NCBI GenBank assembly: GCA_964016885.1 | Contig: OZ024742.1 | Location: forward strand, 226,176,001 to 226,240,000 | DNA length: 64,000 nt | Reading direction: 5' to 3' | Source: Eledone cirrhosa | Taxonomy: Eukaryota | Part shown: in pieces, positions 12,359 through 63,943 of the stretch | Layout of the letters: each line of letters starts with the position of its first letter | How positions within the stretch are numbered: position 1 is the stretch's first letter | Made by a program: the position numbers and the translations under genes | Notes under the pieces: model-generated | Seen by the model: only the letters and a program-made list of their open reading frames with translations | Told to the model about the DNA's origin: nothing | Databases searched by the model: none

Positions 12359-12579
12359 TTTTCTCAAAATAGGGTTTTTCGAAGTTTTTCGAAAGTTAAA
12401 ATGTTCACAATACTATTTCGCCCAAAGGCGCAGAATATTTTGAGAGACCGACCAGATCAAAATTTGACCTGGCAGTCCCTCTACAAAATGGTACAAAAAT
12501 GAAAGTTTACAGTTTACAATTTTCGTATGAATTTAAACAAAAACTTACCGAGCGAGCTCAGCACATGTGTCCATCAGAG

Positions 12580-19484: not shown

Positions 19485-19549
<65 letters not shown>

Positions 19550-19551
<2 letters not shown>

Positions 19552-22543
19552 ACAAAGTGTTGTAGTTTGCTTGAAGTATTGGATAAGATAATAGACGTAA
19601 ATAGAGTGAACGACAGAATAATTAAAATAAGACTTGTCCTCAATAGAACTACGGTGACAGTAATATCTGCGTACGCACCCCAATCCGGACTGCCCAGCAC
19701 TATAAAAGACAGATTCTATGAGACACTGATGCTCACTACCTCCCAAATAACCGACAGTGACTATATAATTATTGCAGGTGACCTAAATGGTCACGTTGGA
19801 CAACATTGTGACGGCTACGACGAAATCCATGGAGGCTATGGGTTTGGTACTAGAAATGAGGAAGGCTCCAGAATCCTGGAATTCTGTGATGCAAATAACC
19901 TAACTATCTGTAACACTAACTTCAAAAAACGTGACAATCACCTGATCACCTATAGATCGGGGGAACACACAAGCCAGGTAGATTATATCCTTACCAGAAG
20001 ACGTGACAGAGTGTCTGTTGTAAACACTAAATCCCTCCCCCATGAAGAATGCACCTCCCAACATAGACTGATAATTAGCGACCTAATAGTCAGGATGAGA
20101 CGTACTAGACAACAGAAGAGGACTATCCTCAGGAGAAAAATATGGAAGCTAAAGGACCCCACAGCCAGAAATAAATTCAAAAGTATACTACTTGATGCTT
20201 TCGACAGTAAGGAAGAGCAATTAGAGTCATACAATATAGAGGAGCAGTGGGAATTCCTGAAAGCAAACCTGCTGATGGCGGCAGACGAAGTCTGTGGCTG
20301 GAGCAGGCCTCTAGGCAGGAGGAGAGTAACATGGTGGTGGAACAGTAAGGTGGAGGGGTCAATTAAGGCCAAAAAGCAGGCTTGGAAAGTATGGCGGGAT
20401 GGGGGAAGCAGAGAAGACTATCAAGTGGCCAGGAGGGAAGCTAGGAGACAAGTGTACTTCGCAAGAAGGGAAGCAGGGGAAAGAAAGTTCAAGCATGTTC
20501 TACAACGCGAGGACAAAAAACGTGAGGTGTTCAGGATTGCTAGGCAATGTGTCAAGGAAAACAGTGATATTGTCGGGGAGAAGTGTCTCCTTAATGATGA
20601 TGGTGTACTTGACATCACTGACGCTGATAAAAAGGTAGCTTGGAAGTGTCACTACGAAAGGCTACTAAATGAGGAGAATAATTGGGAGAAAGACAGTCTC
20701 CCCCACATCGACCCAATAGAGGGACCAGCAGTGTTAGTCGAGGGTTGTATAATAAGTAAGGCAATCAAAGATATGAAGACGGGTAAGGCAGCTGGGCCTT
20801 CGGAAATAGTTGCCGAGATGCTGAAGGCATCTGGTACGGTGGAACACACCATGGTCACCCGGATAGTTAACCAAGTCGTACAGAATGGGGTTGTTCCGAA
20901 GGACTGGCGTAGCAGCATCATCGTTAACTGTTATAAGGGTAAAGGAGATGCCCTAGATAGGAGTAACTATAGAGGCATTAAATTAATCGACCAGGTCATG
21001 AAGGTCACGGAAAAAGTAATAGCGCAACTAATCAGAGAGAGAATTGATCTAGATGAAATGCAGTTCGGGTTTGTGTCAGGCAAAAGTACCACAGACGCTC
21101 TTTTCATTGTACGACAACTACAGGAGAAGTACCTAGCTAAAAGTAAACCCCTATACTTAGCTTTTGTCGACTTGGAGAAAGCCTTCGACAGAGTCCCCCG
21201 TTCCATTATCTGGTGGGCTCTTAGAAAACTAGGTGTTGACGAATGGCTTGTGAGAGCTATACAAGCCATGTATAAAGAAACAGTCAGCAAGGTTAGAATT
21301 AACAACGAATATAGTGAAGAGTTTAGCGTAAAAGTTGGCGTCCATCAGGGCTCTGTTCTCAGCCCCCTACTATTTATTATTGCCCTTCAGGCTATAACAG
21401 AGGAGTTCAAGACCGGTTGCCCATGGGAACTCCTATACACAGATGACCTAACACTCATAGCTGAATCAATGGCCGAGCTAGAGAAGAAATTCCAAACATG
21501 GAAGCACGGCCTAGAATCAAAAGGCCTTAAAATTAACCTGGCTAAGACTAAAGTTCTAGTTTGTAAGAAAGAAAATAAGGCGGCGGTCCCTTCCGGGAAG
21601 TGGCCATGCCCAGTGTGTAGGAAAGGCGTAGGTAGAAATTCCATTTTGTGTCCCAAATGCAAAGTATGGGTGCATAAAAGATGTAGTGGGATCACAGGTA
21701 AGCTAACTAAGAACATAGATTTTACATGTGGCCGGTGCTCTGGTGCAATAAGTAGCAGCAAGTGCCCACAAAATACTAGCTCTTTCAACTGCGCAGAGGG
21801 TTCTATAGAAATAGTGGACAGCTTCCGTTACCTGGGTGACAAAATCAGCAGTGGGGGAGGGTGCTCTGAAAGTACAGTAGCTAGAGTCAGAACTGGATGG
21901 AAAAAGTTCAGAGAGCTTATACCACTATTAGCCGCTAAAGGGTTCTCCCTAAAAATGAAAGGCAGGTTGTATGATGCCTGCATACGAACAGCAATGTTGC
22001 ATAGCAGTGAGACCTGGGCATTGTGTGCAGAGGATATACGCAGACTAGAGAGAAACGAAGCTTGCATGCTCCGCTGGATGTGTAATAGTAATATACGTGA
22101 ACGGCAAAGCATAAACGAACTAAGGAAAAAATTAGAAATAAGAGGGATCAGATGTTGTTTACTCGAGAGAAGGCTACGTTGGTATGGTCACGTGATGCAC
22201 ATGAAGGACGATAGCTGTATAACAAAGTGCAGGGCAATAGACGGTAGCCACGGAATAGGCAGACCCAGAAAAACCTGGGACGAGCTGATAAATTCCGACC
22301 TCACACACTTACACCTCACCAAGACAATGTCACTGGACCGAGTAGGCATCTCTAACAAAATACACCCCAGACCCACACTGTAAATGTGGTTGGTGTTAGG
22401 AAGGGCATCCAGCTGTAGAAAACCCGCCAGATAGTCCTATGCGAGCAAGATAATCACTCTTGCCTCAAGTGGGAAAACCCCCATCCAAACCCATGCAAGC
22501 GTGGAACACGGACGTTAAACGTTGATGATGATGATGATGATGA
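19550..22543 (+). mobile_element. Young 5'-truncated RTE LINE with internal 3' deletions
   Basis: 938-codon open frame plus shortened UTR and (GAT)n tail; 5' end abuts (TA)n. Confidence 0.94.
19567..22383 (+). CDS. RTE ORF (partial APE + RT + PHD-like insert), N-terminally truncated, no ATG start
   Basis: SAYAPQ, AGDLNGHVG, QVDYIL, SQHR (APE); NYRGIKL, DLEKAFDRV, GVHQGSVLSPLLF, YTDD (RT); CPVC..CPKC..VHKRC..CGRC; LRWYGHV, GRPRKTW. Confidence 0.9.
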   Translation: MLEVLDKIIDVNRVNDRIIKIRLVLNRTTVTVISAYAPQSGLPSTIKDRFYETLMLTTSQITDSDYIIIAGDLNGHVGQHCDGYDEIHGGYGFGTRNEEGSRILEFCDANNLTICNTNFKKRDNHLITYRSGEHTSQVDYILTRRRDRVSVVNTKSLPHEECTSQHRLIISDLIVRMRRTRQQKRTILRRKIWKLKDPTARNKFKSILLDAFDSKEEQLESYNIEEQWEFLKANLLMAADEVCGWSRPLGRRRVTWWWNSKVEGSIKAKKQAWKVWRDGGSREDYQVARREARRQVYFARREAGERKFKHVLQREDKKREVFRIARQCVKENSDIVGEKCLLNDDGVLDITDADKKVAWKCHYERLLNEENNWEKDSLPHIDPIEGPAVLVEGCIISKAIKDMKTGKAAGPSEIVAEMLKASGTVEHTMVTRIVNQVVQNGVVPKDWRSSIIVNCYKGKGDALDRSNYRGIKLIDQVMKVTEKVIAQLIRERIDLDEMQFGFVSGKSTTDALFIVRQLQEKYLAKSKPLYLAFVDLEKAFDRVPRSIIWWALRKLGVDEWLVRAIQAMYKETVSKVRINNEYSEEFSVKVGVHQGSVLSPLLFIIALQAITEEFKTGCPWELLYTDDLTLIAESMAELEKKFQTWKHGLESKGLKINLAKTKVLVCKKENKAAVPSGKWPCPVCRKGVGRNSILCPKCKVWVHKRCSGITGKLTKNIDFTCGRCSGAISSSKCPQNTSSFNCAEGSIEIVDSFRYLGDKISSGGGCSESTVARVRTGWKKFRELIPLLAAKGFSLKMKGRLYDACIRTAMLHSSETWALCAEDIRRLERNEACMLRWMCNSNIRERQSINELRKKLEIRGIRCCLLERRLRWYGHVMHMKDDSCITKCRAIDGSHGIGRPRKTWDELINSDLTHLHLTKTMSLDRVGISNKIHPRPTL

Positions 22544-23267: not shown

Positions 23268-23583
23268 CTGACATATACACGAAACAAAGTCTCTCCCCCC
23301 CCTCTCTCTCTCTCTTTCTCTCTGTATATGTGTGGGTATATATATATATATATATATGTGTGTAAATATCTGTATGGATGAGTATATTGTATACATATAT
23401 GTATGTGTTTATCTATATACCTCTCTATGTGGGTGTGTGTGTGCACATATGTACATAGACATGAGTATACATTGATTTGTATGTCAGTTACAACAGACAT
23501 TAAACAATGATGACAAAGATGTTTCTACCAAGAAATCACATGTGGAGAAAACAACAGGGCTGCCATAGAAGAAATACAATAAT

Positions 23584-24476
23584 GATTGTTTCTACTTTAT
23601 GCACAAGGCCAGCAATTACCCAGTGCATTACTGGTACTTTATTTTATCGACCCCGTAAGGATGAAAGGCAAAGTTAACCTCGGCGGGATTTGAAGTTAAC
23701 TTTGCCTTTCATCCTAAAATAATAATAATAATAATGGTTTCTAATATAGGCACAAGGCCAGCAATTTGGGGGAGAGGGGAAAGTCGATTAAATCGACCCC
23801 AGTGCGTGACTGGTACTTTATTTTGTCAACACCATAAGGATGAAAGACTAAGCTAATCTCAGCAGGATTTAAACTCAGAACATAAAGGGCCGTAAATAAA
23901 TACTCCAAAGCATTTTGTCTGATGCTCAACCGATTCTAATAATAATAATTGTTTCTACTTTTGGCACAAGGCCAGGAATTTATTCCAGTGTATTACTGGT
24001 ACTTTATTTTATCGACCCCGTAAGGATGACAGGCAAAGTTAACCTCGGCGGGATTTGAACTCAGAATGGCAAGGGCCGTAACTCTATGCGTCAAAGCATG
24101 GCGTCCGACCCTCTTCCGATACTGCCAATCCACAAAAATAATTGTTTCTACTTTTGGCACAAGGCCAGCAATTATACCAGTGCATTACTGGTACTTTATT
24201 TTATCGACCCCCCGTAAGGATGAAAGGCATAGTTAACCTCGGCGGGATTTGAACTTAGACTGTAAAGGGACATAACTATGCTGGAAAGCATGGTGTCCAA
24301 CGCTCTACCGATACTGCCAATCCACCAGCAGTTTCTGATTTAGGCACAAGGCCAACAATTTTTTGGGAAAGGGTAAGCCAATTAGATTGACCTCATAAGG
24401 ATGAAAGGCAAAGCTAACCTCGGCAGGATTTGAACTCAGAATGTAACGGGCCGTAACTCTATGTTTCACTAATCCA
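23584..24476 (-). mobile_element. Cluster of five head-to-tail SINE A copies (full and partial)
   Basis: ggcacaaggcca...ggatgaaaggcaaag..aacctcggc.ggatttgaac recurs at ~23600, 23750, 23962, 24156 and 24342. Confidence 0.88.
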
Positions 24477-38730: not shown

Positions 38731-39277
38731 TGCAAATTATATATATATACATAAAGTACAAAGACGGTGTGGTCAGATACCAGGTGGACAATAACGCACC
38801 AGAGTATGTGGTTGGTATTAGGAAGGGCATCCAGCCGTAGAAAACCTACCATATAGTCCTATATGAGCGTGACACAGTCACCTGATCAATCTTGCCTCAA
38901 ATGGGACAATACCACTCTAACCCATGCTAGCGTAGAAGATAGACATTAAACGATGATGATGATGATATATGCCCCGCCCTGCCCCTACGATCTACTATCC
39001 TTCTGTCTCTCTATCACATACATAATAAACTATATGCAATTCTCCTTTCCTGTCCTTCATATTTACTCACGCACACACACACTCATACATAAACACACAC
39101 ATATACATAAATACACACTCACATAAATAAACACACTATCATATGCACGTCTCTTTACATCGCCTCTTCCCCCTATTCACATATTATCCACCATATTATA
39201 TATATATATATATATACATGTATATATGTGTGTGTATGTATTATGTCACACACACTGTAAAACAGGTAACGTAGACT

Positions 39278-40306
39278 GAGTGTCATAACCTATGACTGGC
39301 TAGTAGCAGTTTCATTGTCAACTCATTTCCTAGGGTAAAGAAACAGAGGTATCATATCTAATGACTGGTGTAGTAGTATCATTGTCAACTGTTACCTAGG
39401 GTAAAGAGAGAGAGAGAGAGCTATCATATCTAATGACTGGTGTAGTAGTATCATTGTCAACTGTTACCTAGGGTAAAGAGAGAGAGAGAGAGAGAGGTAT
39501 CATATCTAATGACTGGTGTAGTAGTATCATTGTCAACTGTTACCTAGGGTAAAGAGAGAGAGAGAGAGAGAGGTATCATATCTAATGACTGGTGTAGTAG
39601 TATCATTGTCAACTGTTACCTAGGGTAAAGAGAGAGAGAGAGAGAGCTATCATATCTAATGACTGTGTAGTAGTATCATTGTCAACTGTTTACCTAGGGT
39701 AAAGAGAGAGAGAGAGAGAGAGGTATCATATCTAATGACTGGTGTAGTAGTATCATTGTCAACTGTTACCTAGGGTAAAGAGAGAGAGAGAGAGAGAGGT
39801 ATCATATCTAATGACTGGTGTAGTAGTATCATTGTCAACTGTTACCTAGGGTAAAGAGAGAGAGAGAGAGAGCTATCATATCTAATGACTGGTGTAGTAG
39901 TATCATTGTCATCTGCTACCTAGGGTAAAGAGAGAGAGAGAGAGAGAGGTAATCATATCTAATGACTGGTGTAGTAGTATCATTGTCAACTGTTACCTAG
40001 GGTAAGAGAGAGAGAGAGAGAGAGGTATCATATCTAATGACTGGTGTAGTAGTATCATTGTCAACTGTTACCTAGGGTAAAGAGAGAGAGAGAGAGAGAG
40101 CTATCATATCTAATGACTGGTGTAGTAGTATCATTGTCATCTGCTACCTAGGGTAAAGAGAGAGAGAGAGAGAGAGAGAGGTATCATATCTAATGACTGG
40201 TGTAGTAGTATCATTGTCAACTGTTACCTAGGGTAAAGAGAGAGAGAGGAAGGTATCATATCTAATGACTGGTGTAGTAGTATCATTGTCAACTGTTTCC
40301 TAGGGG

Positions 40307-40345
<39 letters not shown>

Positions 40346-40397
40346 CATATCTAATGACTGGTGTAGTAGTATCATTGTCAACTGTTTCCTAGGGTAA

Positions 40398-40459
<62 letters not shown>

Positions 40460-40765
40460 TGGTATCATATCTAATGACTGGTGTAGTAGTATCATTGTCA
40501 ACTGTTACCTAGGATAAAGGGAGAGAGAGAGAGAGAGAGAGGTATCATATCTAATGACTGGTGTAGTAGTATCATTGTCAACTGTTACCTAGAGTAAAGG
40601 GAGAGAGAGAGAAAGAGAGAGGGTATCATATCTAATGACTGTTGTAGTAGTATCATTGTCAATTGTTACCTAGAGTAAAGGGAGAGAGAGAGAAAGAGAG
40701 AGGTATCATATCTAATGACTGGTGTAGTAGTAGTCATCGTCAACTGTACCAAGGGTAAAGAGAGA

Positions 40766-40800
<35 letters not shown>

Positions 40801-40925
40801 CATATCTAATGACTGGTGTAGTAGTGTCATTGTCAACTGTTACCTAGGGTAAAGAGAGAGAGGGAGAGAGAGAGGTGTCATATCTAATGACTGGTGTAGT
40901 AGTATCATTGTCAACTGTTACCTAG

Positions 40926-40982
<57 letters not shown>

Positions 40983-41034
40983 CATATCTAATGACTGGTG
41001 TAGTAGTATCATTGTCAACTGTTTCCTAGGGTAA

Positions 41035-41068
<34 letters not shown>

Positions 41069-41575
41069 TGAGAGAGAGAGAGAGAGAGACAGAGAGAGAG
41101 AGGTATCATATCTAATGACTGGTGTAGTAGTATCATTGTCAACTGTTACCTAGGATAAAGAGAGAGAGAGAGAGAGAGGTATCATATCTAATGACTGGTG
41201 AAGTAGTATCATTGTCAACTGTTACCTAGAGTAAAGGGAGAGAGAGAGAAAGAGAGAGGGGTATCATATCTATGACTGGTGTAGTAGTATCATTGTCAAT
41301 TGTTACCTAGAGTAAAGGGAGAGAGAGAGAGAAGAGAGAGGTAGCATATCTAATGACTGGTGTAGTAGTATCATCGTCAACTGTTACCAAGGGTAAAGAG
41401 AGAGAGGGAGGGAGAGAGAGAGAGAGAGGTATCATATCTAATGACTGGTGTAGTAGTATCATTGTCAACTGTTACCTAGGGTAAATGGAGAGAGAGAGAA
41501 AGAGAGAGGAATCATATCTAATGACTGGTGTAGTAGTATCATTGTCAACTGTTACCTAGGGTAAAGAGAGAGAGG

Positions 41576-41641
<66 letters not shown>

Positions 41642-41924
41642 ATCATATCTAATGACTGGTGTAGTAGAATCATTGTCAATTGGTACCTAGGGTAAAGAGA
41701 GAGAGGGAGGGAGAGAGGTGTCATATCTAATGACTGGTGTAGTAGTATCATTGTCAACTGTTACCTATGGTAAAGAGAGAGAGAGAGAGGTATCATATCT
41801 AATGACTGGTGTAGTAGTATCATTGTCAACTGTTACCTAGGGTAAAGGGAGAGAGAGAGAAGAGAGAGGAATCATATCTAATGACTGGTGTAGTAGTATC
41901 ATTGTCAACTGTTTCCTAGGGTAA

Positions 41925-41999
<75 letters not shown>

Positions 42000-42459
42000 A
42001 GAGAGAGGAGGAGAGAGAGAGAGAGAGAGAAGAGATGAGAGAGGAGAGAGAGAGAGAGGAAAGAGAGAGAGAGAGAGCGATCATATCTGAATGACTGGTG
42101 TAGTAGTATCATTGTCAATTGGTACCTAGGGTAAAGAGAGAGAGGGAGAGAGAGTGGTGTCATATCTAATGACTGGTGTAGTAGTATCATTGTCAACTGT
42201 TACCTAGAGTAAAGGGAGAGGGAGAGAAAAAGAGAGGTATCATATCTAATGACTGGTGTCAGTAGTATCATTGTCAACTGTTACCTAGAGTAAAGGAGAG
42301 AGAGAGAAAGAGAGAGGTATCATATCTAATGACTGGTGTAGTAGTATCATCGTCAACTGTTACCTAGGGTAAAGAGAGAGAGAGAGAAAGAGAGAGGATC
42401 ATATCTAATGACTGGTGTAGTAGTATCATTGTCAACTGTTACCCTAGGGTAAACAGAGA

Positions 42460-42498
<39 letters not shown>

Positions 42499-43436
42499 AT
42501 CATATCTAATGACTGGTGTAGTAGTATCATTGTCAATTGGTACCTAGGGTAAAGAGAGAGAGGGAGAGAGAGAGGTGTCATATCTAATGACTGGTGTAGT
42601 AGTATCATTGTCAACTGTTACCTATGGTAAGAGAGAGAGAGAGAGGTATCATATCTAATGACTGGTGTAGTAGTATCATTGTCAACTGTTACCTAGGGTA
42701 AAGGGAGAGAGAGAGAAAGAGAGAGGAATCATATCTAATGACTGGTGTAGTAGTATCATTGTCAACTGTTACCTAGGGTAAAGAGAGATGAGAGAGAGAG
42801 AGGTATCATATCTAATGACTGGTGTAGTAGTATCATTGTCAACTGTTACCTAGGGTAAAGAGAGAGAGAGAGAGAGAGGTATCATATCTAATGACTGGTG
42901 TAGTAGTATCATTGTCAACTGTTATCTAGGGTAAAGAGAGAGAGAGAGCAGAGCTATCATATCTAATGACTGGTGTAGTAGTATCATTGTCATCTGCTAC
43001 CTAGGGTAAAGAGAGAGAGAGAGAGAGAGGTATCATATCTAATGACTGGTGATAGAGTATCATTGTCAACTGTTACCTAGGATAAAGAGAGAGAGAGAGA
43101 GAGAGAGAGGTATCATATCTAATGACTGGTGTAGTAGTATCATTGTCAACTGTTACCTAGAGTAAAGGGAAGAGAGAGAGAAAGAGAGAGGTATCTTATC
43201 TAATGACTGTTGTAGTAGTATCATTGTCACTTGTTACCTAGAGTAAAGGGAGAGAGAGAGAAAGAGAGAGGTATCATATCTAATGACTGGTGTAGTAGTA
43301 TCATCGTCAACTATTACCAAGGGTAAAGAGAGAGAGGGAGGGAGAGAGAGAGAGAGAGAGGTATCATATCTAATGACTGGTGTAGTAGTATCATTGTCAA
43401 CTGTTTCCTAGGGTAAAGAGAGAGAGAGAGAGAGAG

Positions 43437-43473
<37 letters not shown>

Positions 43474-43703
43474 CATATCTAATGACTGGTGTAGTAGTAT
43501 CATNNNNNNNNNNNNNNNNNNNNNNNNNNNNNNNNNNNNNNNNNNNNNNNNNNNNNNNNNNNNNNNNNNNNNNNNNNNNNNNNNNNNNNNNNNNNNNNNN
43601 NNNNNNNNNNNNNNNNNNNNNNNNNNNNNNNNNNNNNNNNNNNNNNNNNNNNNNNNNNNNNNNNNNNNNNNNNNNNNNNNNNNNNNNNNNNNNNNNNNNN
43701 NNN

Positions 43704-43739
<36 letters not shown>

Positions 43740-43793
43740 GAGGTATCATATCTAATGACTGTTGTAGTAGTATCATTGTCAACTGTTACCTAG

Positions 43794-43824
<31 letters not shown>

Positions 43825-43897
43825 CTATCATATCTAATGACTGGTGTAGTAGTATCATTGTCAACTGTTACCTAGGGTAAAGAGAGAGAGAGAGAGT

Positions 43898-43936
<39 letters not shown>

Positions 43937-44191
43937 CATGTCTAATGACTGGTGTAGTAGTATAATTGTCAACTGTTACCTAGGGTAAAGGGAGAGAGAG
44001 AGAGAGAGAGGTATCATATCTAATGACTGGTGTAGTAGTATCATTGTCAACTGTTACATAGGGTAAAGGTAGAGAGAGAGAGAGACAGAGAGAGAGGTAT
44101 CATATCTAATGACTGGTGTAGTAGTATCCTAGTCAACTGTGACCTAGAGTAAAGGGAGAGAGTGAGAGTGAGCGAGAGATAGAGAGTGAGT

Positions 44192-44248
<57 letters not shown>

Positions 44249-44469
44249 ATCATATCTAATGACTGGTGTAGTAGTATCCTTGTCAACTGTTACCTAGAGT
44301 AAAGGGAGAGAGAGAGGTATCATATCTAATGACTGGTGTTGTAGTATCCTTGTCAACTGTTACCTAGGGCAAAGAGAGAGAGAGAGAGAGAGAGAGCTAT
44401 CATATCTAATGACTGGTGTAGTAGTATCATTGTCAACTGTTACCTAGGGTAAAGAGAGAGAGAGAGAGT

Positions 44470-44506
<37 letters not shown>

Positions 44507-44634
44507 CATGTCTAATGACTGGTGTAGTAGTATAATTGTCAACTGTTACCTAGGGTAAAGGGAGAGAGAGAGAGAGAGAGGTATCATATCTAATGACTGG
44601 TGTAGTAGTATCATTGTCAACTGTTACCTAGGGT

Positions 44635-44682
<48 letters not shown>

Positions 44683-45250
44683 ATCATATCTAATGCCTGG
44701 TGTAGTAGTATCATTGTCAACTGTTACGTATTGGTAAAGGGAGGAGAGAGAGAGAGAGAGGGATAGAGGTATCATATCTAATGACTGGTGTAGTAGTATC
44801 CTTGTCAACTGTTACCTAGGGTAAAGAGAGAGAGGGAGAGAGACAGAGGTATCATATCTAATGACTGGTCTAGTAGTATCCTTGTCAACTGTTACCTAGG
44901 GTAAAGAGAGAGAGGGAGAGAGAGAGAGGTATCATATCTAATGACTGGTCTAGTAGTATCCTTGTCAACTGTTACCTAGGGTTAAGAGAGAGAGGGAGAG
45001 AGAGAGAGGTATCATATCTAATGACTGGTGTAGTAGTATCATTGTCAACTGTTACCTAGGGTAAAGAGAGAGAGGGAGAGAGAGAGAGGTATCATATCTA
45101 ATGACTGGTGAGCAGTATCCTTGTCAACTGTTACCTAGGGTAAAGAGAGAGAGGGAGAGAGAGAGAGGTATCATATCTAATGACTGGTGTAGTAGTATCA
45201 TTGTCAACTGTTACCTAGGGTAAAGAGAGAGACACAGAGAGAGAGAGAGG

Positions 45251-45324
<74 letters not shown>

Positions 45325-45641
45325 CTATCATATCTAATGTCTGGTGTAGTAGTATCATTGTCAACTGTTACCTAGGGTAAAGGGAGAGAGAGAGAGAGAG
45401 AGAGAAGTATCATATCTAATGACTGTTGTAGTAGTATCATTGTCAACTGTTACCTAGGTTAAAGAGATAGAGGGGAGAGAGGGAGGTATCATATCTACTA
45501 CTGGTGTAGTAGTATCATTGTCAACTGTTACCTAGTGTAAAGAGAGAGAGAGAGAGAGAGAGGGAGAGAGGTATCATATCTAATGACTGGTGTAGTAGTA
45601 TCATTGTCAACTGTTACCTAGGGTAAAGAGAGAGAGAGGAG

Positions 45642-45690
<49 letters not shown>

Positions 45691-45753
45691 GTATTATATC
45701 TAATGACTGGTGTAGTAGTATCCTTGTCAACTGTTACCTAGGGTAAAGAGAGA

Positions 45754-45784
<31 letters not shown>

Positions 45785-45838
45785 GTATTATATCTAATGA
45801 CTGGTGTAGTAGTATCATTGCCAACTGTTACCTAGGGT

Positions 45839-45879
<41 letters not shown>

Positions 45880-45981
45880 GAGAGAGAGAGAGAGAGAGAG
45901 AGAGAGTGAGAGAGAGAGAGAGAGAGAGAGGTATTATATCTAATGACTGGTGTAGTAGTATCATTGTCAACTGTTACCTAG

Positions 45982-46020
<39 letters not shown>

Positions 46021-46074
46021 GTATCATATCTAATGACTGGTGTAGTAGTATCATTGTCAACTGTTACCTAGGGT

Positions 46075-46138
<64 letters not shown>

Positions 46139-46269
46139 CTCATATCTAATGACTGGTGTAGTAGTATCATTGTCAACTCTTACCTAGGGTAAAGAGAGAG
46201 AGTGAGAGAGAGAGGTATCATATCTAATGACTGGTGTAGTAGATCCTTGTCAACTGTTACCTAGGGTAA

Positions 46270-46308
<39 letters not shown>

Positions 46309-46405
46309 GGGGGAGAGAGATAGAGAGAGACAGAGAGAGAGAGAGAGCTATCATATCTAATGTCTGGTGTAGTAGTATCATAGTCAACTGTTACCTAGGT
46401 AAAGG

Positions 46406-46462
<57 letters not shown>

Positions 46463-47032
46463 CGAGAGAGAGTGAGAGGTATCATATCTAATGTCTGGTG
46501 TAGTAGTATCATTGTCAACTGTTACCTAGGGTAAAGGTAGAGAGAGAGAGAGAGACAGAGGTATCATATCTAATGACTGGTCTAGTAGTATCCTTGTCAA
46601 CTGTTACCTAGGGTAAAGAGAGAGAGGGAGAGAGAGAGAGGTATCATATCTAATGACTGGTGTAGTAGTATCATTGTCAACTGTTACCTAGGGTAAAGAG
46701 AGAGCAGTGAGAGAGAGGTATCATATCTAATGACTGGTGTAGTAGTATCCTTGTCAACTGTTACCTAGGGTAAAGAGAGAGACACAGAGAGAGAGAGAGG
46801 GAGAGAGAGAGAGAGAGAGAGAAGTATCATATCTAATGACTGTTGTAGTAGTATCATTGTCAACTGTTACCTAGGGCAAAGAGAGAGAGAGAGAGAGAGA
46901 GGTATCATATCTAATGACTGGTGTAGTAGTATCATTGTCAACTGTTACCTAGGTTAAAGAGAGAGAAGGAGAGAGGGAGGTATCATATCTACTACTGGTG
47001 TAGTAGTATCATTGTCAACTGTTACCTAGTGT

Positions 47033-47070
<38 letters not shown>

Positions 47071-47212
47071 GTATCATATCTAATGACTGGTGTAGTAGTA
47101 TCATTGTCAACTGTTACCTAGTGTAATGAGAGCGAGAGAGAGAGAGAGGGAGAGAGGTATCATATCTAATGACTGGTGTTATAGTATCATTGTCAACTGT
47201 TACCTAGGGTAA

Positions 47213-47258
<46 letters not shown>

Positions 47259-47430
47259 CATATCTAATGACTGGTGTAGTCGTATCATTGTCAACTGTTA
47301 CCTGAGGTAGAGAGCCAGAGGGAGAGAGAGAGAGAGAAAGAGAGAGAAAAAGAGAGAGAGAGAGAAAGAGAGAGAGATAGACAGGCAGATAGACAGAGAG
47401 AGAGAGATATCTTATGTAATGACTGGTAAA
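39278..47430 (+). repeat. Satellite array: ~58-bp RTE-derived unit + variable (GA)n spacer, roughly 90 units, spanning an N gap
   Basis: GGTATCATATCTAATGACTGGTGTAGTAGTATCATTGTCAACTGTTACCTAGGGTAAA(GA)n repeated throughout. Confidence 0.97.
43504..43703. other. Assembly gap (200 N)
   Basis: Run of N inside the satellite; true array length unknown. Confidence 1.
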
Positions 47431-48224
47431 GTATAATATGTATGTATAAAGAATAGTTTTCCAGAAAGGAATGGAAAGGGACCACAGTTAGATAAGGAAC
47501 TCAATACATTAAGTAGAGAAGATATATGATTTATTTCATATAGAAATTACAGGATTAGCAATGTTTCAGCGCTTTGAAATCATCAGAAAATATGTGTATC
47601 AAATATCAACCAAGATATAAAAAAAAATTCTATATGCGATAAACATAACATGTACATAAATCCTAGCGCATATACAAATAGATGTGTGTTTTGGTAGGTT
47701 GGGGAGAAAAATATAATTATGGGGATGGGGACATGCCCTCCCCGCTTTCCCGGCCACCTCCAGTTCCACTGTCCCTGTGTGTACATATATGGGTGTATGT
47801 GTGCAGGTGTTATTGGACTTCCATCAATGTCGACAAAAAGTCTTCCAGTTGTTTGATCAACGGAACAGCCTACTCATGAAATCAACCTGTAGGTAGCTAA
47901 GAATTACACAGACATTGTGATAAGGCTGGCTTTTCGAATCAGGTATAACTTAGGTTTTTGAGATGAGTGGACTGGAGCAACATGAAATAAAGCATCCTGA
48001 GATGCATCAAAGAGAACACACTGCCAGGTCTGAGAATTGAACTTACAACTTTATGAACATGACCCTAACATCCTAACAACTAAGCACTGTGCCTTCACAC
48101 ACACACATACATACATATATAAGTATATGTATATTATCATTTAACATGTTTTCCCTGCTTATATATATGTGTGTGTGTGTATTGCTTGTATGTGTGTGTG
48201 TGTGTGTACATATACACATATATA

Positions 48225-49350
48225 TAATATCTTTTGTTATCAGCAGATGTAACAGCTCTCTTAACTTTTTCCACTCCATTCTTATTCTGGCTATTATGCT
48301 TTTAGAATACCCATCTCTACAGCTAATTAGGTCATTGAGGTAACAAAAGCAATCAACCACTTTTAAAGCGCCTTCTGAAGATTTGAAGGAAACCATTACA
48401 TATGTACTTTTACGGTTGACTGTTCATGTGCATCTGTTGCAAACCAAATCTGCCTTCTTTACCAGCCTGTCTGTGATCCTACATCTCTTGTGTGTCCAGA
48501 ATTTACACTGGGTACACTGTTCCCGCCGAGGTTAACTTTGCCTTTCATCCTTACAGGGTCGATAAAATAAAGTACCAGTAATGTACTGGGATAATTGCCG
48601 GCTTCGTACCAAAAGTAGAAATTATAATCCTCATTTTATGCATGCTTTTCTATACCAGCATGGATTGGACTGGTTATTACAGACCAAGCCAATACTTAAT
48701 CAAGGCTACTGTCCTCCAGGTGAGCCAGGAAACCATGCCTTGCTTACATACATTCAACTTTGGGAAGGGTTTCTATGCTTTTCTATATATCAAGCATGAC
48801 CATAACTTACTTTCTTACTGAATAAAACCTTAGTCTTTGTTAAGTTTACTTTGAGGTCTCACAATTTTAGATTTTGCTATTGTTTGGAATTTCATCTGTA
48901 AATCTTCTGCAGATTCAGCTATGAAGAACTAAATCATCAACATACAGGAATCATGATGGATAGCCAGTCATGAATTCCACTGTTATGGCCTGGAGGGAGC
49001 TGAGAACTTAGCCCTGATAAACACTTGTTTGTATATTAAATTCATCACTAAACTCCTTATTAACTTCCACCAAGCTAACAACCCCTTGATATATAGCTTG
49101 TGAGACCCATACATGCAAGTCATCTCCTTAAAAACCATCACTTTTCAGAATGTAGAATGCTGTAAAAGCCCTTCTCCAGGCTAACAAAAGTCAAATGGTA
49201 GGGTTCACTCCTAGTTCAGTATTTCTACAGTTGTACTATAATTCTCCATAACTTTCATAACCTGGTTCAACAATTTCATGTGCCTGTAATTGCCTCTATG
49301 TAATTGCCTTTCTTTCCCTGTAATAGTTGACAATAACAGTGGATATGACA
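48225..49350 (-). mobile_element. Decayed RTE LINE, parent of the satellite, with nested SINE A fragment (48521-48625, plus)
   Basis: Minus strand reads IVNYY, GNYRHMKLLNQVMKVME, LTFVSLEKGF, YVDDL, IAESAEDL, KVNLTKTKV, WTHKRCR, VVDCFCYLNDLIS in RTE order. Confidence 0.8.
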
Positions 49351-49716
49351 CTCTCCTCTTTCCACAGTTGACAGTGATACCACTACAATACCAGTCACTG
49401 GATATGATGCCCCCCCCTCTCTCTCTCTCCCTTTACCCTAGGTAACAATTGACAATGATACTACTACACCAGTCATTAGATATACCTCTCTCTCTCTCCC
49501 TCTCGCTCTCTCTTTACCCTAGGTAACAGTTGACAGTGATACAACTACACCAGTCATTAGATATGATACCTCTCTCTCTCTCTCTCTCTACCTCAGGAAA
49601 CAGTTGACAATGATACTACTACTACACCAGTCATCAGATATGATACCTCTCTTTATTTACCCTAGGTAACAGTTGACAGTGATACCACTACAATACCAGT
49701 CACTGGATATGATACC

Positions 49717-49757
<41 letters not shown>

Positions 49758-50204
49758 CTCTCTCTCTCTCTTTACCCTAGGTAACAGTTGACAAGGATAC
49801 TACTACACCAGTCATTAGATATGATACCTCTCTCTCTCTCTCTCTCCCTTTACCCTAGGTAACAGTTGACAATGATACTACTACACCAGTCATTAGATAT
49901 GATACCTCTCTCTCCCTGCCTCTCTCTCTTTACCTTAGGTAACAGTTGACAATGATACTACTACACCAGTCATTAGATATGATACCTCTCTCTCCCTGCC
50001 TCTTTCTCTTTACCCTAGGTAACAGTTGACAATGATACTACTACACCAGTCATTAGATATGATAGCTCTCTCTCTCTCCCTTTACCCTAGGTAACAGTTG
50101 ACAATGATACTACTACACCAGTCATTAGATATGATACCTCTCTCTCTTTCTTTACCCTAGGAAATGAGTTGACAATGAAACTGCTACACCAGTCATTAGA
50201 TATG

Positions 50205-50238
<34 letters not shown>

Positions 50239-51405
50239 ACCCTAGGTAACAGTTGACAATGATACTACTACACCAGTCATTAGATATGATACCTCTCTCT
50301 CTCTCTCTCTTTACCCTAGGTAGCAGATGACAATGATACTACTACACCAGTCATTAGATATGATAGCTCTCTCTCTCTCTCTCTTTACCCTAGGTAACAG
50401 TTGACAATGATACTACTACACCAGTCATTAGATATGATACCTCTCTCTCTCTCTCTCTCTTTACCCTAGGTAACAGTTGACAATGATACTACTACACCAG
50501 TCATTAGATATGATACCTCTCTCTCTCTCTTTACCCTAGGTAACAGTTGACAATGATACTACTACACCAGTCATTAGATATGATACCTCTCTCTCTCTCT
50601 TTACCCTAGGTAACAGTTGACAATGATACTACTACACCAGTCATTAGATATGATACCTCTCTCTCTCTCTCTCTCTCTTTACCCTAGGTAGCAGATGACA
50701 ATGATACTACTACACCAGTCATTAGATATGATAGCTCTCTCTCTCTCTCTCTTTACCCTAGGTAACAGTTGACAATGATACTACTACACCAGTCATTAGA
50801 TATGATACCTCTCTCTCTTTCTTTACCCTAGGAAATGAGTTGACAATGAAACTGCTACACCAGTCATTAGATATGATACCTCTCTCTCTCTCTCTCTCTC
50901 TCTCTTTACCCTAGGTAACAGTTGACAATGATACTACTACACCAGTCATTAGATATGATACCTCTCTCTCTCTCTCTCTTTACCCTAGGTAGCAGATGAC
51001 AATGATACTACTACACCAGTCATTAGATATGATAGCTCTCTCTCTCTCTCTCTTTACCCTAGGTAACAGTTGACAATGATACTACTACACCAGTCATTAG
51101 ATATGATACCTCTCTCTCTCTCTCTCTCTCTTTACCCTAGGTAACAGTTGACAATGATACTACTACACCAGTCATTAGATATGATACCTCTCTCTCTCTC
51201 TTTACCCTAGGTAACAGTTGACAATGATACTACTACACCAGTCATTAGATATGATACCTCTCTCTCTCTCTCTCTCTTTACCCTAGGTAACAGTTGACAA
51301 TGATACTACTACACCAGTCATTAGATATGATACCTCTCTTTCTTTACCCTAGGAAATGAGTTGACAATGAAACTGCTACTAGCCAGTCACAGGGTATGAC
51401 ACTCA
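49350..51405 (-). repeat. Same satellite in opposite orientation (~27 units)
   Basis: TTTACCCTAGGTAACAGTTGACAATGATACTACTACACCAGTCATTAGATATGATACC(TC)n. Confidence 0.97.
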
Positions 51406-51458
51406 GTCTACATTACCTGTTTGACAGTGTGTGTGACATAATACATACACACACATAT

Positions 51459-51490
<32 letters not shown>

Positions 51491-51690
51491 AATATGGTGG
51501 ATAATATGTGAATAGGGGGAAGAGGCGAAGTAAAGAGACGTGTATATGATAGTGTGTTTATTTATGTGTGAGTAAGTATGAAGGACAGGAAAGGAGGATA
51601 GCATATGGTTGATTATGTATGTGATAGAGACAGAAGGATAGTAGATGGTAGGAGCGGGGCAGGGTATATATATATATATATATATACACG

Positions 51691-53256: not shown

Positions 53257-54380
53257 CGGTATATATGTCCTTATGTATGTGCGTGTGTGTGTGTGTCAGT
53301 ATAATGTCTTTGTGTGTGTGTCAAAGTGAATGCGGTTGTGTATGTGTCAGTATCTACATGTATATGTGTGTGTGTGTGTGTGTCAGTATAATGTCCTTGT
53401 GTATGTGTCAGTGTGTATGTGGTTGTGTATGTGTCAGTATCTATATGTATGTGAGTGCGCGCGTGTATGTCAGTATAATGTCCTTGTGTATGTGGTTGTG
53501 TGTGTGTGCCAGATTCTATATGTATGAGTGCGTGTACGTATGTGTGTGTGTGTGTGTCAGTATGTATATGTATGTGTGTGTGTATGTGTGTATGTCCTTG
53601 TGTATGTGTTTGTGAATGCGCGCGTGTGTGTGTGTCAGTATCTATATCTATGTGAGTGTGTGCGCGAGTATGTCAGTATAATGTCCTTGTGTATGTGTCA
53701 GTGTGTGTGCCAGTATCTATATGTATGTGAGTGCTTGTCTGTGTGTCAGTATAATGTCCTTGTGTATGTGGTTGTGTGTGCCAGTATCTATATGTATGAG
53801 TGCGTGTGTGTGTGTGTCAGTATGTGTATGTATGTGAGTGTGTGTGTGTATGTGTGTCGGTATATATGTCCTTGTGTATGTGTTTGTGTATGCGCTTGTG
53901 TGTGTGTGTGTCAGTATCTATATCTATGTGAGTGTGTGCGCGAGTATGTCAGTATAATGTCCTTGTGTATGTGTCAGTGTGTGTGCCAGTATCTATATGT
54001 ATGTGAGTGCTTGTCTGTGTGTCAGTATAATGTCCTTGTGTATGTGGTTGTGTGTGCCAGTATCTATATGTATGAGTGCGTGTGTGTGTGTGTCAGTATG
54101 TGTATGTATGTGAGTGTGTGTGTGTATGTGTGTCGGTATATATGTCCTTGTGTATGTGTTTGTGTATGCGCTTGTGTGTGTGTGTGTCAGTATCTATATC
54201 TATGTGAGTGTGTGCGCGAGTATGTCAGTATAATGTCTTTGTATATGTGTCAGTGTGTGTGCCAGTATCTATATGTATGTGAGTGCTTGTGTGTGTGTGT
54301 GTGTGAGTGTGTCTGTCAGTATAATGTCCTTGTGTATGTGTTGGTATGTATGTGTGTGTAGCTATGTGTGTCAGTATTTA
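53200..54380. repeat. (TG)-rich minisatellite with ~282-bp higher-order duplication
   Basis: Recurring gtcagtataatgtccttgtgtatgt; block ~53625-53905 repeated at ~53905-54190. Confidence 0.85.
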
Positions 54381-54479
54381 TGTGTATATCTGTATGTAGG
54401 TGTGTGTATCTGTATGTATGTGTGTAGAAAAAAAATGTAAGCATGTTTTTTCTGATAAAAATATAAAGATTAAAGCCGA

Positions 54480-56070
54480 GATTGTGTAGAAAGAAGAGGA
54501 GAATACAGGAGGAGGTGTTTGTATGTATGAGAGAGTGTATGAGTACAGATGTGTTTACGTGTATGCGTGTGTGAGTGTACAGGAGTGTATGTGTATGTTT
54601 GTACAGGAGGATGTGTACAAGAGAATGTATGTATATGTATGTACCAGAGAATGTGTATATGTGTGTGTATAGGAGAGTAAGTATATGTGTGAGTGTTCAG
54701 GAGTGTATGTGTGTACAAGAGAGTATGTGTTTGAACAGGAGAGTGTGTATATGTACATGTGTACAGAAGAGTGTATATGTTTGTATGTGCAGGAAAGTAT
54801 ATATGTATGTCTACAGGAGAGTATGTATATGTGTGCGCACAGGAGAGTGTGTATATGTGTGTGTACACAATAGTATGTATATGTGTGTGTGTGTACAGAA
54901 GAGTGTGTATATGTATGTGTACAGAGTATGTATATGTGTGTGTACAGGAGAGTGTGTATATGTGTGTGTACAGAAGAGTGTGTATATGTGTGTGTACAGG
55001 ATAATGTGTATATGTGTGTGTGTCGGGAGTATGTATATGTGTGTGTACGGAAGATTGTGTATATGTGTGTACGTGTGCGTTCAGGAGAGTATGTATATGT
55101 GTGTGTGTGTACAGATATGTGTGTACAAGAGTGTGTGTTGTGTGTGCAGGAGAGTGTGTATGTGTATATGTGTGTGTATAGGAAAGTGTATGTATGTGTG
55201 TTTACAAGAAAGTCTGTATATGTGTATGTACAGGAGTGTGTATATATGTGAGTATGCAAGAGAATGTATATGTGTGTACAGAAGACGGTGTGTATATGTG
55301 TATGTGAAGGAGGGAGTTTATGTTTGTGTGTGTGTGTATGTTTACAGGAGTGTGTAATATATTGTACAAGAGGGAGTGTGTATGTGTGTGTGTGTGTGTC
55401 CAGGAGAGTGTATATGTGTGTGTATAGAAGAGTGCATATGTGTGTGTGTGTACAGAGGACGAGTGTGTAGGTGTATATGCGTATTATGCAGTAGTGTGTG
55501 TGTGTGTGTGTGCAAGAATATGTGTGTATGTGTACAGCAGACATGAAAGTATGTCTGTGTAAGTTCAATAGACAAAAGAGTTGGAGGGGGTGTACAGAAG
55601 ATTGTATTTGTGTGTATCTGTACGCAAGAGACAAGAGTGTATTATGTGTGTGTTTGTGTAGCTACTAAAGAGTATGTGTATGTTCAAGGAAGATGAGTGT
55701 GTATATACAATGGATAGTGTGTATGTGTGTCTACAACAAACAAGAGAATGTGTGTGGTTGCATGCATTCTTTTATGTGTTTGTGTCTCTGTATGTGTATG
55801 AGACTCTACATTCATATAAGGGCGACTGAGAGAGTATGTTTCTATGAATGTGTGAAAGAGAAAGTGTGTTTATATGAAAATGTGGGAGAGAGAGTGTGTG
55901 TCTTTATCTGAGAATGTAGGAGAGAGAGAGTATGTGTTTATATGAGTGTGGGGGAAAGTATGTGTTTATGTGAGTGTGGGAGAGAGAGTATGTGTTTATG
56001 TGAGTGTGGGAGAGAGAATGTGTGTTTATGTGAGTGTGGGAGAGAGAGAGTGTGTGTTTATGTGTGTGTT
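54480..56070. repeat. Degenerate ~26-bp tgtacaggagagtgtgtatatgtgtg and gtgggagagagagtatgtgtttatgtga tandem repeats
   Basis: Visible periodic motifs in (TG/TA)-rich sequence. Confidence 0.8.
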
Positions 56071-58650: not shown

Positions 58651-59988
58651 GTATATGCTGATGATCTAACGCTTATAGCTGAATCAATGGCTGAACTAGA
58701 GAAGAAATTCCAAACATGGAAGCAGGGCCTAGAATCAAAAGGCCTTAAAATTAACCTGTCTAAGACTAAAGTTCTAGTATGTAGGAAGGAAAATAGGGCA
58801 CTGGTCCCATCTGGGAAATGGCCATGCTCAGTGTGTAGGAAAGGAGTAGGCAGAAACTCCATTTTATGTCCTAAATGCAAAGTATGGGTGCATAAAAGAT
58901 GTAGTGGAATCACAGGTAAGCTAACTAAGAATATAGATTTTATATGTGGCCGGTACTCAGGTGCAATAAGTAGCAGCAAGTGCCCACAGGATACTAGCTC
59001 ATTCCATTGCACAGATGGTTCTATAGAAATAGTGGACACCTTCTGTTACCTGGGTGACAAAATCAGCGGTGGTGGAGGGTGCTCTGAAAGTACAGTAGCT
59101 AGAGTCAGAACGGGATAGAAAAAGTTCAGAGAGCTTATACCACTATTGGCTGCTAAAGGTTTCTCTCTAAAAATGAAAGGCAGGCTGTATGATGCCTGCA
59201 TATGAACAGCAATGTTACATGGCAGTGAGACTTGGGCATTGTGTGCAGAGGATCTACGCAGACTGGAGAGGAACGAAGCTCGCATGCTCCGCTGGGTGTG
59301 TAATAGTAATATACGTAAACGGCAAAGCATAAATGAACAAAGTGAGAAATTAGGAATAAGAGGGATCAGATGTTGTTTACTCGAGTGAAGACTATGTTGG
59401 TATGGTCATGTGGTGCGCATGAAAGACGACAGCTGTATCAAAAGTGCAGGGCGATCAAAATAGACAGTAGCCACGGAGTAGGCAGACCCAGAAAAACCTG
59501 GGACGATTTGATAAATTCCGACCTCACACACTTACACCTCTCCAAGACAATGTCAATGGACCGAGATCTTTGGCACTACACAGTAATACAGAAGACCCGC
59601 CTTGCCTAAGTGCAAAGCGAAACCTACAGTCAGTAGGCACCTCCTAACCAAAATACACCCCCATCCCACTACCCCCACACCATCCACACCACCCCTTTCG
59701 ATGTAAAGTTATGTTGGTACCACAACATCCAGTCCTAAACAAATGAGGTCGTGTAGGTGTCATGACAAAAAAAACACACAGTCCACGCTGTAATGTGGCC
59801 GTGTAGGTAACACGGTAAAAACCTCCCAGTCCACACTGTAAACGTGGTTGGTGTTAGGAAGGACATCCAGCTGTAGAAAACCTGCCAGATAGTCCTATAC
59901 GAGCAAGACAACCAATCTTGCCTCAAGTGGGAAAATTCCCGTCCAAACCCATGCTAGCGTGGAAGATTAAACGATGATGATGATGATG
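58651..59988 (+). mobile_element. 5'-truncated RTE LINE pseudocopy
   Basis: Starts at YADD; PHD-like insert, FCYLG, GRPRKTW, long UTR, (GAT)n. Confidence 0.93.
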
Positions 59989-61826: not shown

Positions 61827-63943
61827 TCATCATCATCATCATCATCATCAACGTTTAACGTCCATGTTCCACGCTTGCATGTGTTTGGACGGGGGTATTC
61901 CCACTTGAGGCAAGAGTGATTGTCTTGCTCGCATAGGACTGTCTGGCAGGTTTTCTACAGTTGGATGCCCTTCCTAACACCAACCACATTTACAGTGTGG
62001 GGCTGGGAGGTTTTTACTGTGTTGCCTACACGGCCACATTACAGCGTGGACTGTGTGTTTTTTTGTCGTGACACCTACACGATCTCATTTGTTTCGGCCT
62101 GGATGGCGTGGCACCAACATAACTTTACATAGAACGGGGTGGTGTGGATGGGGTGGGGGTGGTGGGACGGGGTGTATTTTGTTAGAGATGCCTACTGACT
62201 GTAGTAGGTTTTACTTTGTATTTAGGTAAGGCGGGTCTTCTCTGTTACTGAGTACCGCCAAAGGTCTCGGTCCAATGACATTGTCTTGGAGAGGTGTATG
62301 TGTGTGAGGTCGGAGTTTATCAGCTCGTCCCAGGTTTTTCTAGGTCTGCCTATTCCGTGGCTACCGTCTATCTTTATTGCCCTGCACTTTGTTATACAGC
62401 TATCGACTTTCATGCGCATCACGTGTCCATACCAACGTAGCCTTCTCTCGAGTAAACAACATCTGATCCCTCTTATTTCTAATTTTTTCCTTAGTTCGTT
62501 TATGCTTTGCCGTTCACGTATATTACTGTTACACATCCAGCGGAGCATGCAAGCTTCGTTCCTCTCTAGTCTGCGTATATCCTCTGCACACAATGCCCAG
62601 GTCTCACTGCCATGCAACATTGATGTTCATATGCAGGCATCATACAACCTGCCTTTCATTTTTAGGGAGAACCCTTTAGCAGCTAATAGTGGTATAAGCT
62701 CTCTGAACTTTTTCCAACCAGTTCTGACTCTAGCTACTGTACTTTCAGAGCACCCTCCCCCACTGCTGATTTTATCGCCCAGGTAACGGAAGCTGTCCAC
62801 TATTTCTATAGAACCCTCTGCGCAATTGAAAGAGCTAGTATTTTGTGGGCACTTGCTGCTACTTATTGCACCAGAGCACCGGCCACATGTAAAATCTATG
62901 TTCTTAGTTAGCTTACCTGTGATCCCACTACATCTTTTATGCACCCATACTTTGCATTTGGGACATAAAATGGAGTTTCTACCTACGCCTTTCCTACACA
63001 CTGAGCATGGCCATTTCCCAGAAGGGACCGCCGCCTTATTTTCTTTCCTACAAACTAGAACTTTAGTCTTAGCCAGGTTAATTTTAAGTCCTTTTGATTC
63101 TAGGCCGTGCTTCCATGTTTGGAATTTCTTCTCTAGCTCGGCCATTGATTCAGCTATGAGTGTCAGGTCGTCTGCATATAGGAGTTCCCATGGGCAGCCG
63201 GTCTTGAACTCCTCTGTTATAGCCTGAAGGGCAATAATAAATAGTAGGGGGCTGAGAACAGAGCCCTGATGGACGCCAACTTTTACGCTAAACTCTTCAC
63301 TATATTCGTTGTTAATTCTAACCTTGCTGACTGTTTCTTTATACATGGCTTGTATAGCTCTCACAAGTCATTCGTCAACACCTAGTTTTCTAAGAGCCCA
63401 CCAGATAATGGAGCGGGGGACTCTGTCGAAGGCTTTCTCCAAGTCGACAAAAGCTAAGTAGAGGGGTTTACCTTTAGCTAGGTACTTCTCCTGTAGTTGT
63501 CGTACAATGAAAAGAGCGTCTGTGGTACTTTTGCCTGACACAAACCCGAACTGCATTTCATCTCGGTCAATTCTCTCTCTGATTAGTTGCGCTATTACTT
63601 TTTCCGTGACCTTCATGACCTGGTCGATTAATTTAATGCCTCTATAGTTACTCCTATCTAGGGCATCTCCTTTACCCTTATAACAGTTAACGATGATGCT
63701 GCTATGCCAGTCCTTCGGAACAACCCCATTCTGTACGACTTGGTTAACTATGTGGGTGACCATGGTGTGTCACACCGTGCCAGATGCCTTCAGCATCTCA
63801 GCAACTATTTCCGAAGGCCCAGCCGCCTTACCCGTCTTCATATCCTTGATTGCCTTACTTATTATACTCCCCTCGACTAACACTGCTGGTTCCTCTATTG
63901 GGTCGATGTGGGGGAGACTGTCTTTCTCCCATTTATTCTCCTA
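61827..63943 (-). mobile_element. Young 5'-truncated RTE LINE (in-frame stops), same subfamily as 19550-22543
   Basis: ORFs 63368-63763, 62627-63364 and 62222-62620 are nearly identical in protein to the 938-aa ORF; complete UTR and (GAT)n tail. Confidence 0.94.

Follow-up and report, generated by a model that had tools for sequence, protein, structure and literature searches.

What produced two long tandem arrays that face in opposite directions in the genome of Eledone cirrhosa, and does the resulting inverted repeat act against retrotransposons? The arrays lie in a 64,000-nucleotide stretch (NCBI GenBank assembly GCA_964016885.1, contig OZ024742.1, positions 226,176,001 to 226,240,000 of the forward strand), here called the window, to which all coordinates refer. 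A first, sequence-only reading had favored a fold-back yielding kilobases of double-stranded RNA (dsRNA) homologous to RTE-type long interspersed nuclear elements (LINEs), with a neutral local inversion-duplication as its fallback. We found that the fallback fits best. With a probability of roughly two in three, the locus is a minisatellite of retrotransposon origin that was duplicated locally in inverted orientation, with neutral effect, and whose arms have been kept partly alike by arm-to-arm conversion.

The inverted structure itself was confirmed. When the window was compared with itself, 38965-41303 paired inversely with 51671-49364 at 85% over 2448 columns. The arrays are opposed, as the sequence-only reading had stated: the left one (39349-47309, plus strand) holds 86 whole units and the right one (49434-51333, minus strand) holds 25, making 111 head-to-tail whole units with a period of ∼70-80 bp. 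Units were parsed against a reference unit taken from 39497-39551, and the counts exclude edge, partial, and degenerate units (39280, 43470, 47407, 49353, and 51345). Each unit consists of a 55-bp core with 11-154 bp of (GA)n after it; the core, a segment of reverse transcriptase (RT), accounts for 4728/7761 bases of the left array and 1383/1900 bases of the right array, and the remainder is (GA)n. An assembly gap divides the left array into pre-gap and post-gap parts (Table 1), and higher-order blocks of four to five variant units recur about three times in the pre-gap part (40342-43415). The rare variant cctgaggtag, rightly placed by the earlier reading at both inner ends, has a single occurrence on each strand of the 64 kb, at 47301 and in reverse at 49588.

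The unit corresponds to residues 468-485 of the local RT frame. In the dominant local LINE, a single frame encodes endonuclease, RT, and PHD domains (Pfam Exo_endo_phos_2, RVT_1, and PHD in 19552-22380), and its copies carry (GAT)n 3′ tails. We provisionally take it to be an RTE element, the label used in the earlier reading. The label agrees with the element description in section 6 of PMC9115989, where an RTE element, possibly of another family than the one in the window, is described as expressed in the brain of Octopus vulgaris. One long open RTE-like frame (19486-22383, plus strand; 943 aa after a TA run) has the RT motif YTDD, vs. YADD in other local copies. Another LINE frame (62627-63367, minus strand) has an O. 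vulgaris protein as its best animal-named match (64% identity), with Hydractinia proteins at 53-57%, a ranking that, along with SINE and tail features like those of octopus genomes, points to a cephalopod; its top database match (72%) is labeled as a bacterial metagenome-assembled genome and is probably host DNA in that record.

LINE sequence lies on both sides of the right array. Beyond its inner end, homology runs on the minus strand from 49408 down to 48232 (tblastn E 4e-22 and 6e-19), with 66-69% DNA identity to three local RTE copies. Upstream of the right edge unit, 34 nt are colinear with two RTE families (21/34 and 22/34; binomial p 4e-5 and 9e-6), and LINE homology there begins at 51437, behind a TA/TG run. 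The case for an RTE origin of this upstream DNA comes from the colinear test; when the 48 bp ahead of the edge unit were compared with one RTE copy without anchoring, the result was borderline (48/1000 shuffles reached the score), with its match at another position. Because LINE sequence flanks the right array on either side, the array arose inside an old 5′-truncated copy. Tandem satellites born from a LINE open reading frame (ORF) are known (PMC9659126).

The left arm has this same 5′-truncation junction and flank, yet at its inner end it stops at a degenerate partial unit (47407-47441), past which no LINE follows; it is, therefore, a DNA-level duplicate rather than a second retrotransposition. 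This bears out the earlier argument that the left arm, lacking the downstream RTE continuation found only past the right array, is the derived copy. The inverted, diverged flank that was said to cap each array is also present: its copies (38965-39348 and 51334-51671) differ by 17 substitutions in 332 aligned columns (5.1%; 94.9% identity) and by one 50-bp indel. The earlier description of this flank as unique holds for the window only, and its inner ∼100 bp are RTE-derived. At the outer junction, homology ends sharply in TA runs, and the 3′ tail of an RTE copy lies to the left of the left arm. Transduction of the arm by this tail (38742-38970) was considered and rejected, because no RTE tail is found upstream of the right flank. 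Direct repeats bracketing the left arm alone reach at most 5 bp.

We then compared variants between the two arms. Markers are colinear: the edge unit is common to both, a three-site haplotype occurs in three left units (all pre-gap) and three right units, variant 33C occurs in 11 post-gap units and one inner right unit, and the inner marker occurs once per arm. Units of the left array carry private variants, on average 1.5 and 1.8 substitutions each, a level consistent with the 5% flank divergence. By comparison, 0 private changes are seen in the 17 outer right units, vs. the 14-45 expected from that divergence. An identical right counterpart exists for 11/12 outer left units vs. 5/36 and 11/38 further in, and pure GA spacers make up 10/11 and 14/16 in the outer domains vs. 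7/35, 5/37, and 0/7 inside. Flank substitutions are graded as well, with 10/103 in the outer part vs. 7/229 in the inner part. Under a rough model, the probability that both unit types would stay identical in independent arms is 0.03, 0.003, and 1e-5 at d = 3.1, 5.1, and 9.7%, respectively; arm identity above the age expectation holds for the outer domains and under this model only. A 238-nt exact inverted match between the arms, for which no null was computed, was not used as evidence. Recent arm-to-arm conversion explains the homogeneity of the outer domains, their sharing between arms, and the flank gradient alike, and the variant patterns suggest that the outer array domains were recently converted in this way. 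Such conversion has been described for other palindromes (PMC1803023).

These observations fit a history in four steps. A 5′-truncated RTE-like LINE lay behind a TA/TG run on the minus strand, and inside it 55 bp from the beginning of the RT domain, together with the (GA)n run after them, were amplified in tandem; this step can be read directly from the locus. Array, LINE 5′ junction, and ∼280 bp of flank were then copied in reverse ∼1.9 kb away; the order of this step is likewise legible, and its simplest route may be a broken or stalled DNA end that folded back into the array, followed later by a template switch at a self-complementary (TA)n run. Being self-complementary, TA runs would be natural template-switch points. 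Fold-back inverted duplications described in humans have spacers of 766-70,466 bp and microhomology of 2-8 bp, and the ∼1.9-kb spacer falls inside that range (PMC3907307). The left array next grew to at least 8 kb with variants of its own, as its units display. Finally, one arm may recently have overwritten the outer array domains of the other, with conversion fading outward into the flank.

Several points weigh against this history. If the genome holds a third copy elsewhere, the outer domains could be shared without conversion, and the flank gradient (Fisher p 0.015) depends on a cut point picked after inspection. The inner junction is a degenerate unit, at which inverted microhomology could not be cleanly placed. 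Sequence linkage is broken by the gap for the outer half of the left arm, and neutrality is argued from absence of evidence.

Table 1. Components of the inverted structure, with window coordinates
Feature	Position	Strand	Evidence
3′ end fragment of RTE-like LINE, (GAT)n tail, and short TA run adjoining left arm (outer junction)	38742..38970	+	other RTE 3′ ends matched by nhmmer (lowest E 6e-33); 77-84% identity
Left flank copy: ∼280 bp of microsatellite-rich DNA, RTE 5′-truncation point at ∼39245, diverged edge unit 39280-39337	38965..39348	+	aligned to right copy
Pre-gap left array: 48 whole units, outer 12 homogeneous, others with higher-order variant blocks	39349..43503	+	
200-N assembly gap in left array, true size not given by the Ns	43504..43703	.	
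Post-gap left array of 38 whole units; carries the inner marker (47301) and, at the inner junction, a degenerate partial unit (47407-47441)	43704..47441	+	
Single-copy spacer of ∼1.9 kb: nonrepeated DNA, tRNA-like short interspersed nuclear element (SINE; ∼47955-48140, minus), second SINE piece (48521-48621), decayed RTE body	47442..49352	.	
Decayed RT-to-PHD part of the array's parent RTE-like copy: residues ∼469-818 of local RTE frame, stops and frameshifts, 3′ end missing	48232..49408	-	tblastn and DNA alignment
Right array, at the ancestral position: inner units degenerate, inner marker 49588, 25 whole units 49434-51333, edge unit 51345-51402	49353..51402	-	
Right flank copy: RTE 5′-truncation point 51437, (TA)n run at end	51334..51671	-	

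Other origins were weighed against the same sequence. The earlier reading gave the fold-back a length of 12.7 kb; the inversion stands, with its inner part (43704-47441 vs. 49353-51402) on gap-free sequence, but the length and the linkage of the left flank do not, since the left array is interrupted by 200 Ns (43504-43703), and 12.7 kb is therefore a scaffold length of lower confidence. The part left of the gap might belong to a paralogous flank-and-array copy scaffolded here, leaving only the inner inversion (43704-51671) as real at this locus. Besides the gap itself, this would fit the lack of any multisite haplotype common to pre-gap and post-gap units, best matches between them that reach at most 127 bp at ≥95% identity, and outer units that are identical although the flank is 5% diverged. 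However, the same array in the same orientation meets both gap edges, and the marker order, with outer markers pre-gap and inner markers post-gap, fits one duplicated arm; we consider a misplaced paralog unlikely. An assembly artefact, whether a misjoined alternate haplotype or a fold-back chimeric read, we regard as highly improbable, even though the gap sits in a long GA-rich array and single-base indels occur in pre-gap cores (10 in 2640 bp). Mirror symmetry would be expected of a fold-back chimera, whereas at offsets from -10 to +10 at most one nonconsensus unit coincides between the post-gap and right arrays, and real substitutions separate the arms. As for an alternate haplotype, which the earlier reading had named as a possible undoing of its case, an allele would share more than we observed: the DNA beyond the flanks (11 kb on the left vs. 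7 kb on the right) is unrelated save for four short RTE-tail matches. The same reading had offered an FB- or Galileo-style foldback element, which we weighed as a nonautonomous DNA transposon of FB, Galileo, or Tetris-like type that had drawn an internal RTE-derived array into its inverted repeats. Long inverted repeats with internal tandem repeats are indeed present, as in foldback elements, and both ends lie in TA runs, which is compatible with a TA-type target duplication. Nonautonomous foldback copies lack a transposase, and none was found here: 0/15 spacer ORFs match Pfam at E 0.05, the spacer being LINE and SINE debris. The layout resembles the flanking, tandem outer, and middle domains of Tetris (PMC4079207), and Galileo is described as lengthening its terminal inverted repeats (TIRs) by recruiting internal sequence (PMC3573991). 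Against such an element, every boundary pair tried gave solely ambiguous TA-run matches, as the earlier reading had anticipated in seeing no target-site duplication (TSD), with no 7-10 bp non-TA duplication at the ends; the Tetris TSD is 8-10 bp (PMC4079207). The flank tips are also the least conserved part, with differences in 5 of the first 25 columns vs. 12/307 elsewhere (p 0.005), whereas Galileo TIR pairs are 98-100% identical (PMC3573991), and no third flank copy exists in the window beyond low-complexity matches. We consider a foldback transposon very unlikely.

The dsRNA proposal was examined by predicted folding and by targeting rules. Folding gave 2096 predicted pairs for the outer arms and 1685 for the post-gap vs. 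right array, with either strand where tested, and longest predicted helices of 127 and 78 bp, respectively. The expected folding of a read-through RNA into a duplex of ∼2 kb is thus upheld, and any such RNA would form a long duplex and, probably, an ADAR substrate; editing of repeat dsRNA is described in metazoans (PMC9989829). The view of the arms as kilobases of RTE sequence failed, because they repeat one 55-bp RT segment among (GA)n runs. Only 55/2832 nt of the RTE frame (2% of the ORF) are represented in the duplex. The core is identical to five local RTE copies at 36-39/55 positions (65-71%), 35/35 core 21-mers differ at four or more positions from anything else in the window, contiguous pairing there reaches at most 12 nt (G:U included), and 0/41 15-mers are shared with the local copies. 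As rules for small interfering RNAs (siRNAs) and PIWI-interacting RNAs (piRNAs), we used the simulation rules of PMC10338343, of which the piRNA rule is permissive, allowing up to six mismatches. Under the siRNA rule, 3/35 core 21-mers pass, none of them on the dominant RTE family (1/48 shuffled ones pass somewhere); under the piRNA rule, 22/30 core 26-mers pass against 4/5 cognate copies (shuffled, 0/40). The suggestion of siRNAs aimed at the dominant family consequently found no support among local copies in either the shared 15-mers or the siRNA rule. More room is left for its piRNA counterpart: the 26-mers pass the permissive rule, but contiguous pairing stays below the 15 pairs reported as needed for PIWI slicing (PMC10338343).

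For comparison, an ordinary inverted RTE pair lies 7 kb away (58652-59988, plus strand, and 61837-63180, minus strand). It has 90% identity over 1348 bp, a 1848-bp loop, and 1259 predicted pairs, and it scores 61/75, 74/75, and 371/900 on the same targeting tests. A further 17 inverted pairs of ≥150 bp and ≥80% identity were counted in the window. Given the better-scoring RTE pair and these further pairs, the array locus is not a privileged source of RTE dsRNA, and in these predictions the ordinary pair is the better candidate for both RTE dsRNA and editing. Any dsRNA from the array locus would probably be a by-product, one of many in a repeat-dense region. A functional small-RNA or ADAR locus, whose read-through transcript gives dsRNA or antisense guides that silence RTE in the manner of a hairpin RNA (hpRNA) or a piRNA cluster, would draw on the 1685-2096 predicted pairs, on the contrast between passing core and shuffled 26-mers, and on the antisense arm present in a transcript of either strand. 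Production of piRNAs, however, needs no fold-back or hairpin, and the absent 15-mers, the 12-nt longest run, the few 21-mers passing the siRNA rule, and the scores of the control RTE arm all count against this possibility. An Rfam scan of the whole window gave no matches and ARAGORN no genes. Among the 150 longest of 252 non-repeat ORFs, the Pfam search for host exons returned weak matches for 16/150 and none (0/150) at the curated cutoff, a search that short exons would escape. AATAAA signals in the spacer, three on the plus strand and one on the minus strand, add weak evidence to the same side. The idea has a precedent in Drosophila simulans, in the form of a Jockey-derived hpRNA (PMC10317233); for the present locus we hold a small-RNA role to be a long shot. 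Equally slim are the odds of its most elaborate form, a satellite-built, self-maintaining anti-LINE locus in which >110 copies of the conserved RT-start motif in both orientations, kept alike by conversion, would be transcribed into piRNA-type guides that strike several RTE families through relaxed PIWI pairing, or into a 2-kb duplex that loads ADAR, in a lineage with a neuronally expressed RTE element.

The window as a whole is ∼39% GC and dense in LINE fragments, SINEs, and microsatellites. One LINE (7046-12412, minus strand), which we presume to be of L1/Tx1 type, looks intact, with a 634-aa frame containing a zinc knuckle and a 1153-aa frame containing endonuclease, RT, and zf-RVT; its GC content reaches 57% vs. 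the ∼39% background, and it is possibly young. About 570 bp upstream of its first frame lies a 29-bp minisatellite of ∼33 copies (12981-13917), which may be part of the 5′ region. The (GAT)n tails of LINEs and SINEs often adjoin (TA)n runs (e.g., at 33882, 37810, 61263, and 61605), suggesting a preference for insertion at TA microsatellites. SINE-like repeats of 190 bp form a head-to-tail cluster at 23576-24463, with further copies at 1533, 16302, 25363, and 48521. Around a fragment that we assume to be CR1-like, a 195-bp direct duplicate (14999-15193 and 15621-15815; 99.5% identity) reflects either a recent tandem duplication or an assembly slip. To the right of the inverted structure, 53276-56070 consists of TG-rich nested tandem repeats with periods of 276, 87, and 26 and a strong G skew.

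The locus shares traits with several known systems. Like the LINE-ORF2 satellites PROsat, HinfI/CR1, and Pvc 20 (PMC9659126), it has a tandem unit taken from the ORF of a non-long terminal repeat retrotransposon; here, in contrast, parental sequence is still found on either side of one array, (GA)n of variable length forms part of the unit, and a second array stands opposed. As in fold-back inverted duplications (PMC3907307), an inverted copy lies beside the original across a spacer of ∼2 kb, but the present case is of kilobase scale and interstitial, with no terminal deletion seen, a second template switch needed, and junction microhomology not cleanly resolved. Palindromes of Caenorhabditis and the primate Y (PMC1803023) also have arms that are partly more alike than age predicts, whereas here the arms are noncoding minisatellites of very unequal length, homogenized only in their outer domains. 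Tetris, FB, and Galileo (PMC4079207 and PMC3573991) similarly combine a nonrepetitive outer domain, tandem repeats, and a short middle; the present structure differs in having no clear TSD, no transposase, diverged tips, and repeats that stem from a LINE extending into the middle. Drosophila hpRNA loci such as hp-ODox2 (PMC10317233) are likewise inverted repeats of LINE sequence, yet they have demonstrated transcripts, Dicer-2-dependent siRNAs, and full complementarity, while the guides predicted here carry at least four mismatches per 21 nt to local copies. Full-text literature searches, some of them aimed at octopus, returned no description of the present array, which does not imply its absence from print.

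Three known processes thus meet in one place: a minisatellite born in a LINE that is still recognizable, an inverted duplication at short range, and probable conversion with a positional gradient. The locus could serve to test how far conversion tracts reach from a tandem array. If RNA guides or editing substrates did come from the arms, they would mark a route from satellite expansion to multifamily retrotransposon control.

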